Shown here: piece by piece, positions 34,901 through 40,900 of the stretch
Layout: each line of letters begins with the position of its first letter
Numbering within the stretch: the first letter of the stretch is position 1
Origin: Escherichia coli 042
GTDB lineage: Bacteria; Pseudomonadota; Gammaproteobacteria; Enterobacterales; Enterobacteriaceae
Length of the DNA stretch: 64,000 bases
Strand: one strand, 5' to 3'
NCBI RefSeq assembly: GCF_000027125.1
Contig: NC_017626.1
Position numbers: made by a program

Positions 34901-37900
34901 GGATAATGCATAATCATATTGCTTTCCAACCATTGGGCGTCGATCATAAATAGCATCCGCGACTACTTGCGCTACTTTTTGAGTGTATTTGGGTCTTTTT
35001 TTAACATCTAACGCTTTACCTATAAGTTCAACAACTTCATCACTCCCTGCAACTAAGGGAATATCAGCATAACGGCCTTGGATTTTAGTCCACTCTTCAC
35101 GAGTTTCAAGTCCAAGTCGAACAGCATATTGTCCAAAAGATTGATGTAATATACCTAAGATAATGACTTTACCATTTGTACGTGCTGCAGATTCAGCAAG
35201 CTCTTGGTAAAAATAAATATCATCGCCATTTCCTAAAGCTGATGCTTCAAGGAACTTACCTAGCTCGTCAATGATAAGCAAGGTACCATCTAACTTCGCT
35301 TCATCTGCAGCACTGCATATGTGTTTAATAAGTAATGATGCTGATTTTTTATAATCTTTATCACTACCACAAACATTATTCAGAGTTTGCGAAATTTGTT
35401 GGATTATGCTACCTCTGCGGCCAATAACTGGAAGTATTAACCATCCTTTTTTAACTTGGAATGCTTTATCAAAATCACTTTGTGAATCGACATTTAACAA
35501 TGACCTTGCTTTTTCACGTAGAGCTTTGTTAGGTGATAATGAACTTGCAAGAACTAACGCTAATGATGATTTCCCACTTCCATACGGACCAGTCCATGTG
35601 AAAGCTCGCTGTTGGCTATTCAGAACCTGCTTGGACATGTTTTCAAGAACGCTTTGTGCCGTGCCATTGCATACATATCCATCAAGCGCATCTTCGCGGC
35701 CAAGATCAGCATCAATACGGATGGAACGTTGGTATTGTCTCGCAATGCGAACCTGTTCTGAAAGAAGGTTTTTATTATGTTTAGTCATAAGCCTTTCCAA
35801 GCATGTTCAATTTAATTACTTCTGTTTCTGATGTTTTACGATGAACCTGGCGTAAACCAGCTGTATCAGTCCATATAAATGAACCTTCAGTTAACTCTTC
35901 TAATGCGAATAATCGTTCTGCAATAGAGTCTTCATCGAGCTTAAATACTCTACCCGGAGAACCGTCCCCATATGCAATTGTTTCGAAGGATAATGAGCTG
36001 AGATTTAGGGCCTTACGCTCCCAATAATCGATCAGAGCATAAGCAAATACACCATCAGACAAAGTAATCTTTGGACCTCGACGAAATGAAAAGTGTCCTT
36101 TTTTTTCTTCAGCTAGTAAACCTAATTCACCAAGCATAGGTTCGGCAAAGTCTTCAGGAGTGGTTCCACTCGACCGCGGTGCATAACTACGCAAACATGT
36201 CTCAATATCTCGAGAAAGTGTCATTGGTGATAGTTTTCTCCCAGGACAACATTGCGTAGCATAGTCAGCTAAAAGAGCCCGGAGGTCTTCTTGTGTAAAA
36301 GATGAAGAAACAACATGGTTAAATAACCAGTACCAAGTTGTCGAGCGTTCTCCTTTTCCTGAAAGCTTCCAATGGCTAAGCCATGCTGTCGAGGGATGCT
36401 CTGAATAAGGATCAAGCCCATGTTCGCTAAATATTTTAATAGCAAATTCTGTAAGTTTGAATTTACCATCCTCTTCTCGCATTACTTCACAGGCGAGTGC
36501 CCAATGCTTGATTGATGCGACCATGTTTTTGCCTACACCAAATTTGGCAATGGCCTCATCATTCGAAAAAACCGATTTGTCAATAGAACCATCCGGCGCT
36601 GCATAACTGCAGGTTTTTTTTAACCACATTTGTCTTAGTGGGAAGGTCTCGTGACCTGAAAAGTGAGCCATGACTTATCCTAATGCGATAACAACTTTGT
36701 ATAAGCTGATTGTACAGGAACTGGAGAGTTTCACCAGTGGCGGCTTTTGGACATCATTGGGGTGGCGTAGCGGTTTTTTTTTTATTTTTTTCGTTAAAAT
36801 ACATATTGTTAATTGTTTTTTATTGCGGAGGGGAACTGTCTATATCTTCTCATGCATCGGGATTTTTAACAGGCCTGAGCTGGCATGTTCTACCGTTTCA
36901 CACAGAAAGGAACAGTTAGTTTCAAACGGATACTTATCAATCAGTGGTGTGAGAAATGCTAAGAGTGGGAAACGCACTTAATTTTATGATTTCTTAGTGA
37001 CCAGTTTTTAACCATGAGCTAATCTTAAAATCTGATTTTTATCAATGAGTTAATGTTGATGTACTATGCGGCAATGAATGAAGTGTATTGCCATTCCGAA
37101 TTTTTGCTCATTTTTTAGCCATTTCCATACTTTTTTGCGTGAATATTTTATGAACAATGTTCCTTTCATAACTTATCTGTCTCAAATGATACGTTTGGAG
37201 TTTACAATTACTAAATATTTAATGTAAGTGGGAACAGCTATTTTTTGTTCATATTAGCTCCCAGCAGCAAAAGATGATGTAATTCATCCGGTGCAGAGAT
37301 AATATAGGAATGGATAATCTGGAGAGCGACTCTGCAGGCTGATATTGCGGTTTTGCGGCAAGTTTTTGGCATCCGCTTCTACGCCAAATACCTGAAGTAG
37401 GAATGGATGCGTTAGCAGCATACATCCGGATCTGCGCGGGGAATAGCCGGAAACGGCTATCCCTACCACAATAGCTAACTTTGTAATAGTGCCCTTTTAG
37501 GCTCATGTACTCTGACGTAATTCTATCTGGTAGTTGAATTGCACGATACGCGACTCTTCTGATTCATCATGATTATTATTCAATAGCCCAATCAGTAACT
37601 TACCCGTCTCTATCCCCATTTTTTTGTAGTCAATACGGATGGATGTCAAGGTTGGGTGTGTTTGATCGCAATTGTCTGAACCATCAAGACAAGCTACAGC
37701 GATATTTTCAGGAATTTTTAACAAACGCCGCTGGCACTCAAACATGATACCCAGCGCAATCTCTTCGTGGCTGCAAATCACAGCATCCAGCTCTGGTTGT
37801 CGCAGTAATATCTCGTTTAATGCGTAACGCCCCAATTGCAGACTTGCGGCATCCGGCATGGTGATAACAAGATCAGAGTTCTGGTAATGGCTCAACATTG

Positions 37901-40900
37901 CTTTATGCCAGCCGTTCAGTTGCTGACGTTGCAGGCGGTTGTCCATATGCGCACCGATAAATCCGATATTCTTATAACCCTGTTCCAGCAGATGTTCGGT
38001 CAGTTTATGTGATGCTTCAAAAAATGCTGTTTCGATGGTAATTTGAGCCGGACTGAAAGGGGAACCGACAACGTTAATGGTAGGTATATTTGTTTTCTCG
38101 AGTATCTGGTGAGTTTTATCAGCCAACTGAGAACCAAAAATAACTAACGCCGCCGGGTTGCCTTGAAGAAGCGTCATCAGAATTTCAGCTTCTTTGAGCT
38201 GATTATACTCATGACACCCAAGCAGTAGCTGGAATTCATTTTTATTAAGCACCTGCTGCAACGACTGCATAAAGCGGGAGCTGGCTTTATCTGTCAGGGA
38301 AGGAACCAGTACGGCGACTGTATCACTGTGACCAGATGCAAGGGCGCCAGCAGTTCTGTTGGGAATATAACCCAACTCTTCTACGGCCTGTTCTATCTTT
38401 TCCCTCAGCTTGTCAGATACCTGTTCCGGTGTTCTCAGCGCACGGGAAACGGTCATGGTTCCGACACCTGCAAAGTTAGCGACCTCCTGCAGCGTCACCC
38501 GTCCGGTACCACGGCGCTTACGTGTTTTTTCCATTTCGACTCCATGGATAATTACAACCAGCTGTTTTCATTACTTTTATTTCACCATTACTCTTTCCAG
38601 TTTTTGCCCACGGTAGCAAATATCCTGTTGCATTGTATATGCAGGAACCGAATATAGCCAAAGCATGGCGGCAGAGAAATGATAGCGCTATCACAAAGAT
38701 TGGTAGCGTTATCAGATAGCGCTATCAAATGCGACAATCATCACATTAATTAATGCGTAAAATATCTACTCTCCTGTTAATTATCATCGGGAGTTATCAG
38801 TAGCATGTTAAAAAATCTATTAAATACAGAGGTCGTTCAGGTCGTGGAACAGGCCAAAGACTGGCGGGAAGCCGTGGCGATTTCATGCCGGCCGTTGATT
38901 GAAAACGGTTCTATCGAACCGCGTTATGTTGATGCGATCTATCGCTCGCACGACACTATCGGTCCGTACTATGTGGTTGGCCCTGGTATTGCGATGCCTC
39001 ATGCGCGCCCGGAAGAGGGAGCTAACAAGCTGTCATTAGCACTGACCCTGATCCCTTCAGGTGTGAATTTTGATGCCGATGAAAACGATCCAGTGAAATT
39101 ACTGATTGTGCTGGCTGCAACCGACAGTACCAGCCACATTGAAGCGATTTCTCAACTCGCCAAGTTATTCGATAACGAAAAAGACATACAGGCCATTTTG
39201 ATGGCCAAAACGACGCAGGACATTTTGTCTGTTATTGCGCGCTATTAATCCAGAGGAACATTTATGAAAATTACAGTGGTTTGCGGTAACGGCTTAGGCA
39301 CCAGCCTGATGATGGAAATGAGCATTAAAAGCATTTTGAAGGATTTGTCCGTCAGCGCTGATGTTGATCACGTCGACCTGGGCTCCGCGAAAGGGACGCC
39401 GAGTGATATCTATGTCGGCACCAAAGACATTGCCGAGCAGTTAGTCGCGCAGTCTGTCGCAGGCAAAATCGTCGCACTGGAAAATATGATTGATAAGAAA
39501 GCCATGAGAGAACGTTTATCCGTGGTATTAAACGAATTAGGCGCACTGTAAGCTGGGGGCGATATGGATTTCTTTCGTTTTTTGATGAGCGATGTACTTT
39601 CCGAACCCGCAGTGCTGGTCGGTTTAATCGCCCTGATTGGCCTGATTGCACAGAAAAAACCGGTAACCGAATGCATTAAAGGTACCGTCAAGACCATTAT
39701 GGGGTTTGTGATTTTAGGCGCAGGGGCGGGTTTAGTTGTGTCGTCACTGGGTGACTTCGCAAACATTTTCCAGCATGCCTTTGGTATTCAGGGTGTAGTG
39801 CCGAACAATGAAGCCATTGTTTCCGTAGCGCAGAAAAGCTTCGGGAAAGAAATGGCGATGATTATGTTCTTTGCGATGGTTATCAACATTATGATTGCCC
39901 GTTTCACACCGTGGAAATTTATCTTCCTGACCGGTCATCACACGTTGTTTATGTCGATGATGGTAGCGGTAATTCTGTCAACAGCAGGCATGACCGGCAT
40001 TACGCTTATAGCCGTTGGCTCTTTGGTTGTTGGCGTGGCAATGGTCTTTTTCCCGGCTATTGCGCATCCGTACATGAAGAAAGTGACCGGTTCTGATGAC
40101 GTTGCCATCGGCCACTTCTCAACATTATCTTATGTATTGGCTGGTTTCATCGGCAGCAAGTTTGGTAATAAAGAGCACTCGACTGAAGACATGAATGTGC
40201 CGAAAAGTCTGCTGTTCTTGCGCGACACGCCGGTTGCTATCTCTTTTACCATGAGCATAATTTTCCTGGTGACGTGCCTGTTTGCGGGTGCAGATGCGGT
40301 GAAAGAGCTTAGCGGTGGTAAAAACTGGTTCATGTTCTCTATCATGCAATCCATTACCTTCGCAGCTGGCGTGTACATCATTCTGCAGGGTGTGCGCATG
40401 GTGATTGCGGAGATTGTCCCGGCATTCAAAGGTATTTCAGACAAGCTGGTTCCGAATGCCAGACCTGCTCTCGATTGCCCGGTCGTCTTCCCTTACGCAC
40501 CTAACGCTGTACTGGTTGGTTTCCTGAGTAGCTTTGCTGCAGGTTTAATCGGTATGTTCACGTTGTATCTGCTGAACATGATCGTGATTATTCCTGGTGT
40601 GGTGCCGCACTTCTTCGTAGGTGCAGCTGCAGGGGTATTCGGTAATGCAACGGGTGGACGTCGTGGTGCGATTTTGGGTGCCTTCGCTCAAGGCTTGCTT
40701 ATTACCTTCCTGCCAGTATTCTTATTGCCGGTGCTGGGTGATATTGGTTTTGCTAACACCACCTTCAGTGATGCTGACTTTGGCGCACTGGGTATTTTGT
40801 TAGGGATTATCGTTCGCTAATATTTTGATGACATTAATATCCTCCAGGATTTCAGGAACGTGGAGGATATTAATTCCTCTTATTTTCTCCATTTTTCTTT

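Follow-up and report, generated by a model that had tools for sequence, protein, structure and literature searches.

A LacI-regulated ascorbate-family phosphotransferase system on an Escherichia coli 042 island, very probably the vpe locus, is a stand-alone four-gene unit

What does a complete sugar phosphotransferase system (PTS) do on a genomic island when no catabolic enzyme gene accompanies it? The question is raised by positions 37503-40820 of a 64,000-nucleotide stretch of Escherichia coli 042 (assembly GCF_000027125.1, contig NC_017626.1), which was analysed as a whole and is referred to as the window. A preliminary description, made from the sequence alone, read this locus as an island-borne, LacI-regulated PTS of the ascorbate type, either an orphan transporter, perhaps for a host-derived sugar acid, or a remnant of a larger cassette. 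The system is not new but one that has been described before. It is very probably vpeR-vpeABC, known from extraintestinal and other pathogenic E. coli as the "Vpe carbohydrate permease", i.e., an enzyme II complex of the UlaA-type family, complete and sugar-specific, together with a LacI-family repressor of its own. The four genes are:

37503-38534, minus strand: vpeR, LacI-family regulator of 343 aa (Pfam LacI helix-turn-helix (HTH) at aa 14-59 plus Peripla_BP_3/BP_1)
38805-39248, plus strand: vpeA, PTS enzyme IIA of 147 aa (PTS_EIIA_2, PF00359, E 3e-36)
39264-39551, plus strand: vpeB, PTS enzyme IIB of 95 aa (PTS_IIB, PF02302; motif VCGNGLGTS)
39564-40820, plus strand: vpeC, PTS enzyme IIC permease of 418 aa, L-ascorbate (UlaA-type) family (EIIC-GAT, PF03611, E 3e-150, aa 10-405)

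All four open reading frames (ORFs) were confirmed with the coordinates, lengths and VCGNGLGTS motif first given for them, the LacI-family gene facing the IIA-IIB-IIC genes across a divergent intergenic region of 270 bp. The gaps between vpeA and vpeB (15 nt) and between vpeB and vpeC (12 nt) are so short that the PTS genes form a tight operon. VpeA has its presumed phosphorylation site, His66, in AMPHARPE, which matches AMPHGRPE of UlaC and also CmtB (2OQ3), and VpeB has its presumed site, Cys7, in VCGNGLGTS, comparable to VCGNGQGSS of UlaB and CGNGMGSS of RmpB. A domain search found no regulatory domain (PRD or HTH) fused to the Vpe PTS proteins. The ORF map and domain searches also bear out that no catabolic gene is co-transcribed: no enzyme gene follows vpeC among the window's ORFs, and next come a hairpin, a tnpA fragment and, on the opposite strand, the deoxyribose genes.

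The vpe locus of uropathogenic E. coli AL511 was reportedly described by Martinez-Jehanne et al. in 2012 (Infect Immun 80:2655). Identity with this prototype is inferred through the annotations of the LAC pathogenicity island (PAI) and of strain NCTC 86 that cite it. In the supplementary table on the LAC PAI, VpeR (LacI, 343 aa), VpeA (147), VpeB (95) and VpeC (418) are followed by a transposase and DeoM/DeoP/DeoK/DeoQ, and the genes here match ORFs 34-37 of that table, ORF34 being VpeR, in order and length. The VpeR, VpeA and VpeB translations printed there differ from the window at a few residues. The accessions of DeoM (WP_000107474.1) and DeoK (WP_000350265.1) are common to that table and to E. 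coli strain CV839-06, which is 100% identical to this stretch and whose RefSeq annotation served for the context features. Since order, lengths, near-identical translations and deo neighbours all agree, we regard the two as the same locus. The NCTC 86 genome paper places the vpe locus and the deoK operon on one region of difference (ROD 40) and cites the role of vpe in AL511.

According to papers citing Martinez-Jehanne 2012, vpe is associated with urovirulence and sepsis and with colonisation of the gut by E. coli, and vpe mutants show reduced capsule-like material and lower in vivo fitness. One of these papers still describes the substrate as unknown, and the literature searched contained no named substrate for Vpe.

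The same enzyme-less arrangement occurs far outside E. coli. Close VpeC orthologues in other species are 88-97% identical, and Brenneria, Dryocola, Photorhabdus and Vibrio parahaemolyticus each carry these four genes, identically arranged, in a chromosomal context unrelated to the other three. To survey the module, the 18-bp operator sequence AATGATAGCGCTATCACA from the divergent region (operator O1, see below), which is invariant in a five-genus alignment, was used as an exact probe of 100,044 species genomes (one genome per species). It gave 100 loci; in 86 of them the 18-mer is flanked by a vpeR homologue on one side and a vpeA-vpeB-vpeC operon on the other, and the remaining 14 fall in unrelated phyla, compared with about 9 expected by chance on our estimate. 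No vpe-bearing genome contains a second exact copy of the 18-mer, and every exact match in vpe-bearing genera is the vpe promoter. The 86 species belong to about 17 genera in the orders Enterobacterales, Vibrionales, Aeromonadales and Orbales: Yersinia (including Y. pestis), Photorhabdus, Proteus, Moellerella, Aeromonas, Vibrio, Grimontia, Salinivibrio, Gilliamella, Erwinia, Kluyvera, Buttiauxella, Dryocola, Enterobacter, Citrobacter, Brenneria and Edaphovirga.

Clustering of all flanking ORFs in the 86 loci revealed no recurrent catabolic enzyme beside the module. In addition, Buttiauxella, the nearest relative of E. coli in this respect, is homologous to it at the DNA level (86%) over 37501-40819, i.e., between the stop codons of vpeR and vpeC. 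Thus the conserved unit is four genes long (3.3 kb), and this enzyme-less unit is the native form, as it is found in 86 species and in unrelated contexts, without a recurrent enzyme and with homology running from stop to stop. The preliminary description was right to see an island-borne orphan PTS of the ascorbate type under a LacI regulator; its alternative of a remnant does not hold, and it had overlooked both the existing vpe name and the in vivo study.

The commonest neighbours of the module are orthologues of the core genes pta, yfcD, yfcE, yfcG and yfcH. The module fills the core pta-yfcD interval, the place of yfcC in K-12, in Yersinia, Proteus, Brenneria, Erwinia and Kluyvera. Its orientation within this interval varies, with vpeR toward pta in Yersinia and toward yfcD in Proteus (the loci behind the two orientations include L014, L020, L043, L047, L059 and L089), and no yfcC homologue is present in those Yersinia and Proteus loci.

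Two kinds of neighbour were considered as partners and rejected. A NUDIX gene recurs in 24 loci, on either side of the module, and is the yfcD orthologue of the pta-yfcD-yfcE-yfcH interval; no such gene adjoins the module in Photorhabdus, Vibrio, Aeromonas or E. coli. The HAD hydrolases beside vpeR in Dryocola and V. parahaemolyticus do not recur and, judging from the neighbouring genes and the K-12 map, appear to be local core genes.

Placement of the IIC protein by identity puts VpeC in the UlaA type (31% identity to UlaA; match to 4RP8 with E 2e-50), with no detectable similarity to SgcC (BLASTP E 1.9), and the locus is part of neither a ula nor an sgc operon. VpeC passes the NCBIfam model NF006919, "PTS ascorbate transporter subunit IIC" (629 bits, cut-off 380), and falls below the curated UlaA model NF009549 (592 bits, cut-off 890). 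In UlaA, ascorbate is contacted by T86, Y87, H135, I136, Q139, H194, Q195, D314, I358, F362 and M410, while G58 and G286 are the elevator pivot glycines and R288 is the arginine at the IIB interface (PMC6048161). These residues were mapped onto VpeC and nine orthologues. The pivot glycines and the interface arginine are kept in VpeC (G54, G276 and R278) and in all nine, and in UlaA numbering VpeC retains G58, G286, R288, H135, H194, D314 and F362. Seven of the 11 ascorbate contacts are replaced in VpeC (T86N, Y87E, I136H, Q139F, Q195F, I358V and M410T), all at residues where mutation cripples ascorbate binding in UlaA, and a further position is replaced as well (S59A). From E. coli to Aeromonas these replacements do not vary, except at Q139F, which is Y in three divergent orthologues.

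Because the mechanistic residues are kept while the pocket is changed and yet fixed, a different, specific substrate is indicated, and the substrate of Vpe is probably not L-ascorbate. The permease itself is highly conserved, with identities of 84-98% in most genera, and E. coli VpeC is 89-96% identical to those of Yersinia and Proteus, above AckA and Pta encoded in the same loci (84-90%). The conservation of VpeR, however, falls to about 43% among the orthologues. This difference speaks against the module having been transferred recently as a whole, and the unequal conservation, high for VpeC and the operator, points to strong constraint on the permease and the operator.

Two deposited structures belong to this system under names that do not link them to vpe. 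The V. parahaemolyticus orthologue of VpeR has its effector domain in PDB 3D8U (602 bits, essentially identical), an entry titled "PurR transcriptional regulator", and PDB 3OXP has the same sequence as the VpeA orthologue of Y. pestis.

For VpeR, the best NCBIfam matches are GntR of Pseudomonas (279 bits, cut-off 400), IdnR (208, cut-off 500) and GntR (175, cut-off 433), i.e., it lies below every cut-off of the GntR/IdnR equivalog models. These matches hint weakly at a ligand of the sugar-acid type, and a gluconate-like sugar acid may be offered as a low-confidence guess at the substrate. The product of gluconate uptake, 6-phosphogluconate, needs no extra enzymes. However, such a substrate has against it that all the regulator matches are below cut-off and that the VpeC pocket gains Glu83 and His126; the extra glutamate and histidine would not obviously favour an anionic substrate. 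The host-derived sugar acid of the preliminary description would likewise be a guess.

The divergent region between vpeR and vpeA contains the following elements, none of the first four being assigned a strand:

38680-38693: O1, the perfect 14-bp palindrome TGATAGCGCTATCA, presumed VpeR operator, found by the pattern scan of the window
38701-38714: O2, TGGTAGCGTTATCA, two mismatches to O1, presumed operator, 21 bp from O1
38714-38727: O3, AGATAGCGCTATCA, one mismatch to O1, presumed operator, 34 bp from O1
38730-38745: CRP-like site TGCGA-N6-TCACA, abutting O3, a consensus match at which CRP would bind
38767-38772, plus strand: putative -10 element TACTCT of the vpeABC promoter, within the block TCTACTCTC, conserved in enterobacterial loci

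Allowing at most two mismatches, TGATAGCGCTATCA matches four times in the window, where 0.23 matches are expected, and 0 of 100 shuffled sequences reached four. The fourth match, TTATAGCGATATCA at 11421-11434, lies outside the locus, has two mismatches and is at chance level. In the five-genus alignment the operators are the only invariant intergenic blocks. At least two operator cores are present in 78 of 84 orthologous loci; O3 stands at its 34-bp offset from O1 in nearly all 84 and an O2 core at 21 bp in about half. VpeR thus has what is expected of a LacI repressor: an HTH, a periplasmic-binding-protein-like effector domain and three conserved palindromes near the target promoter. The Photorhabdus loci have lost O2 and carry a leader before vpeA with tandem AGAAGA/CAGAAGA-like repeats. 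In Vibrio hepatarius (two loci) there are four operator cores, an extra O1-like copy lying 43 bp upstream of the usual triplet.

The TCTACTCTC block is conserved in Enterobacterales loci 3' of the CRP-like site, and recognisable CRP half-sites are retained in Vibrio and Aeromonas. The centre of the CRP-like site (38737.5) would be at -41.5 if transcription starts near 38779. From this spacing we infer a class II CRP-dependent promoter, with the proximal repressor site overlapping that of the activator. A generic sigma-70 scan gave 10 matches against 8.6 in shuffled sequence and was excluded as evidence.

We suggest that the system could work as follows. Without inducer, VpeR would bind the three palindromic operators (consensus TGATAGCGCTATCA) in the 270-bp region, and O3, the operator nearest the promoter and abutting the CRP site, would probably repress by blocking class II activation by CRP. 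With inducer present and glucose absent, vpeABC would be transcribed. Phosphate would then pass from phosphoenolpyruvate (PEP) through enzyme I (EI) and HPr to His66 of VpeA, Cys7 of VpeB and finally the substrate, held in the core domain of an elevator-type VpeC. Since the module lacks enzymes in every genome examined, the phosphorylated product would be handled by enzymes encoded elsewhere or act as a signal.

The locus is kept within E. coli: 935 of 5,426 complete genomes, ATCC 25922 included, carry the full four-gene segment at 98.7-100% identity. The vpeC-deoM-deoP junction occurs in 1,185 genomes, among them Nissle 1917. The vpe-deoK pair moves as a block between islands, at leuX here and at pheV in the LAC PAI.

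It can be speculated, at rather less than even confidence, that Vpe is an ancient, stand-alone and very widespread PTS whose compound has so far not been counted among PTS substrates, that its product is either a central metabolite needing no dedicated enzymes or a signal modulating the capsule, and that the module was re-acquired by E. coli on pathogenicity islands. Several observations weigh against parts of the main reading, i.e., vpeR-vpeABC working as suggested above. The strict CRP pattern TGNGA-N6-TC[AG]C is found at the same offset in only 38 of the 84 loci, and the generic sigma-70 scan missed the proposed -10 element at 38767-38772. The mapping of the pocket rests on an alignment at 31% identity, in which the HP1/HP4 positions (T86/Y87 and M410) are the least certain. 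The details of the original vpe study are taken from the papers citing it. Finally, about 400 further E. coli genomes keep only the 3' 878 bp of vpeC (39943-40820, 98.9% identity), with the rest of vpeC and all of vpeR, vpeA and vpeB missing, a recurrent deletion variant, so the locus is dispensable in many lineages.

Other explanations can be compared on the same evidence. That the locus is what is left of a larger catabolic cassette, whose enzymes, as in ula or sgc, were removed by insertion sequence (IS) activity, is hardly credible: the identical unit is found in four orders, its recurrent neighbours are the core genes pta, yfcD, yfcE and yfcH, and the DNA shared with Buttiauxella ends precisely at the stop codons of vpeR and vpeC. 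It is true that IS fragments flank the module in E. coli (IS110 at 37268-37375 and IS66 tnpA at 41067-41321) and that transketolase, transaldolase or SIS-isomerase genes accompany IIC relatives about 50% identical to VpeC, but those relatives carry PRD/Mga-type regulators and are different systems. Vpe might instead be a second L-ascorbate transporter, a UlaABC paralogue feeding the chromosomal UlaG/UlaDEF pathway. The use of existing ula enzymes would explain the enzyme-less locus in E. coli, VpeC and UlaA have the fold family and the catalytic H135, H194, D314 and R288 in common, and both the RefSeq name, "PTS ascorbate transporter subunit IIC", and the passing of NF006919 agree with it. We nevertheless consider it quite improbable in view of the 31% identity, the seven replaced contacts, the score below the curated UlaA model, a LacI-type rather than DeoR-type regulator, the A-B-C instead of C-B-A gene order, and a citing paper in which the substrate is still described as unknown.

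A sensory or regulatory PTS, in which the phosphorylation state of VpeA and VpeB or a product that is not metabolised would signal to surface-polysaccharide or virulence regulation, is unlikely, though it fits several of the facts. No locus has a catabolic partner beside the module, the mutant phenotype in the citing papers concerns capsule-like material and in vivo fitness and not a growth defect on a known sugar, and VpeC is more conserved than AckA and Pta. However, a substrate-type LacI repressor together with a CRP-like site is typical of catabolic uptake operons, no PRD or HTH domain is fused to any Vpe protein, and the capsule phenotype could equally be an effect of metabolic supply.

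The search for the substrate of Vpe is narrowed by the native enzyme-less layout in four gammaproteobacterial orders and by a pocket unlike the ascorbate pocket. The structures 3D8U and 3OXP, of the VpeR effector domain and VpeA, make ligand discovery directly approachable. What is added to the known locus is the refutation of the remnant idea, the conserved operators, the altered pocket and the link of two structures to vpe. The question that is left is real but modest, namely what a conserved stand-alone PTS transports and why capsule and in vivo fitness are affected.

The island location first proposed for the locus is supported by the tRNA-Leu(CAA) gene leuX at 25438-25522, followed by an integrase, which marks the start of the island, and by a GC content of 0.36-0.47 compared with about 0.53 in the core flank. 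Around the vpe genes the following features were found:

37268-37375, minus strand: IS110-family transposase fragment at the vpeR-side boundary (RefSeq annotation of CV839-06, 20069-20176 in that locus, L001)
40862-40880, plus strand: candidate terminator, a hairpin with T-run 42 bp past the vpeC stop (consensus scan only)
41067-41321, minus strand: IS66-type tnpA fragment between vpeC and the deoK cluster, matching ORF38, "transposase", of the LAC PAI table
41742-42755, minus strand: deoM, DUF4432 mutarotase-like, of the neighbouring deoxyribose cluster and outside the vpe system
42767-44083, minus strand: deoP, FucP-type MFS permease, deoxyribose cluster
44111-45058, minus strand: deoK, ribokinase-family kinase, deoxyribose cluster
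45334-46119, plus strand: deoQ, divergent DeoR regulator, deoxyribose cluster

The leuX-proximal part of the island carries, on the minus strand, an SspB-SspC-SspD phosphorothioate (PT)-modification module (35781-36671, 32456-35788 and 31624-32463; PADLOC scores of 381, 1451 and 466 bits). No SspE or SspFGH partner was detected within 27244-36671 of the window. Convergent to the module are two unclassified genes on the plus strand, one for a 794-aa protein with two GHKL/HATPase domains (27244-29628) and one for a 614-aa protein with only a weak response-receiver-like match (29631-31475). These two genes could be an undescribed PT-sensing restriction partner of SspBCD.

The distal part of the island, 46120-61400 (28922-44201 in L001), is a mosaic of IS3, IS66 (ISEc23) and IS100 copies in the RefSeq annotation of CV839-06. 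It also contains a fragmentary acetolactate-synthase small subunit, a split TetR gene and a BCCT transporter, and further an extra lpxM, a virK pseudogene and capU. Before the island, at about 22590-25240 (5392-8043 in L001), yjgR lies directly beside ahr, and the L-idonate/gluconate genes idnR-idnT-idnO-idnD-idnK (GntII cluster), which stand between the two in K-12, are absent. A second low-GC stretch (9000-15000, GC 0.33-0.43) is found upstream of valS in an otherwise core region.

Compared with known systems, Vpe is most readily set beside UlaABC of K-12 (TC 4.A.7; 4RP8/4RP9 and 5ZOV). VpeC is in the same EIIC family and presumably shares its elevator fold; the pivot glycines are conserved, as are R288, H135, H194 and D314, and the IIA (His) and IIB (Cys) types match. 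However, the gene order is C-B-A in ula and A-B-C in vpe, ula is controlled by the DeoR-type UlaR and vpe by a LacI-type repressor, and ula is linked to lactonase, decarboxylase and epimerase genes, none of which lies beside vpe. Neither the window nor any of the 86 orthologous loci contains ulaG, ulaDEF or a DeoR-type UlaR, and K-12 keeps its own, separate ulaABC with ulaG/DEF. SgcABC of K-12, with a galactitol-type IIC, also consists of split IIA, IIB and IIC genes near leuX, and VpeA is 39% identical to SgcA, but the sgc operon includes the enzymes sgcE, sgcQ and sgcX and a DeoR-type regulator.

The IIC clusters nearest to the Vpe group, at 49-53% identity, are those of PRD/Mga-regulated ascorbate-family PTS clusters, metagenomic and Firmicute-type (five loci). 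They differ in the type of regulator, in having IIA fused to it, and in linked enzyme genes of the pentose-phosphate type (transketolase, transaldolase or SIS isomerase); as these systems are differently organised, a transfer of function from relatives at about 50% identity was rejected. On the side of the regulator, the GntR/IdnR branch (P. aeruginosa GntR, E. coli IdnR and GntR; PDB 3H5O) provides the best-scoring curated families and has LacI-type palindromic operators like those of VpeR. However, VpeR scores under the cut-offs of 400-500 and is 29% identical to IdnR, and the ligand is not transferable. The closest counterpart is the vpe locus of AL511, the LAC PAI and NCTC 86, which agrees in its four genes, in their lengths and order, and in what follows them, a transposase fragment and then deoM-deoP-deoK/deoQ. 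The copy here differs from the LAC PAI copy in a few amino acids and in its island, which is inserted at pheV there and at the tRNA-Leu gene leuX here, where vpe stands downstream of the SspBCD module.

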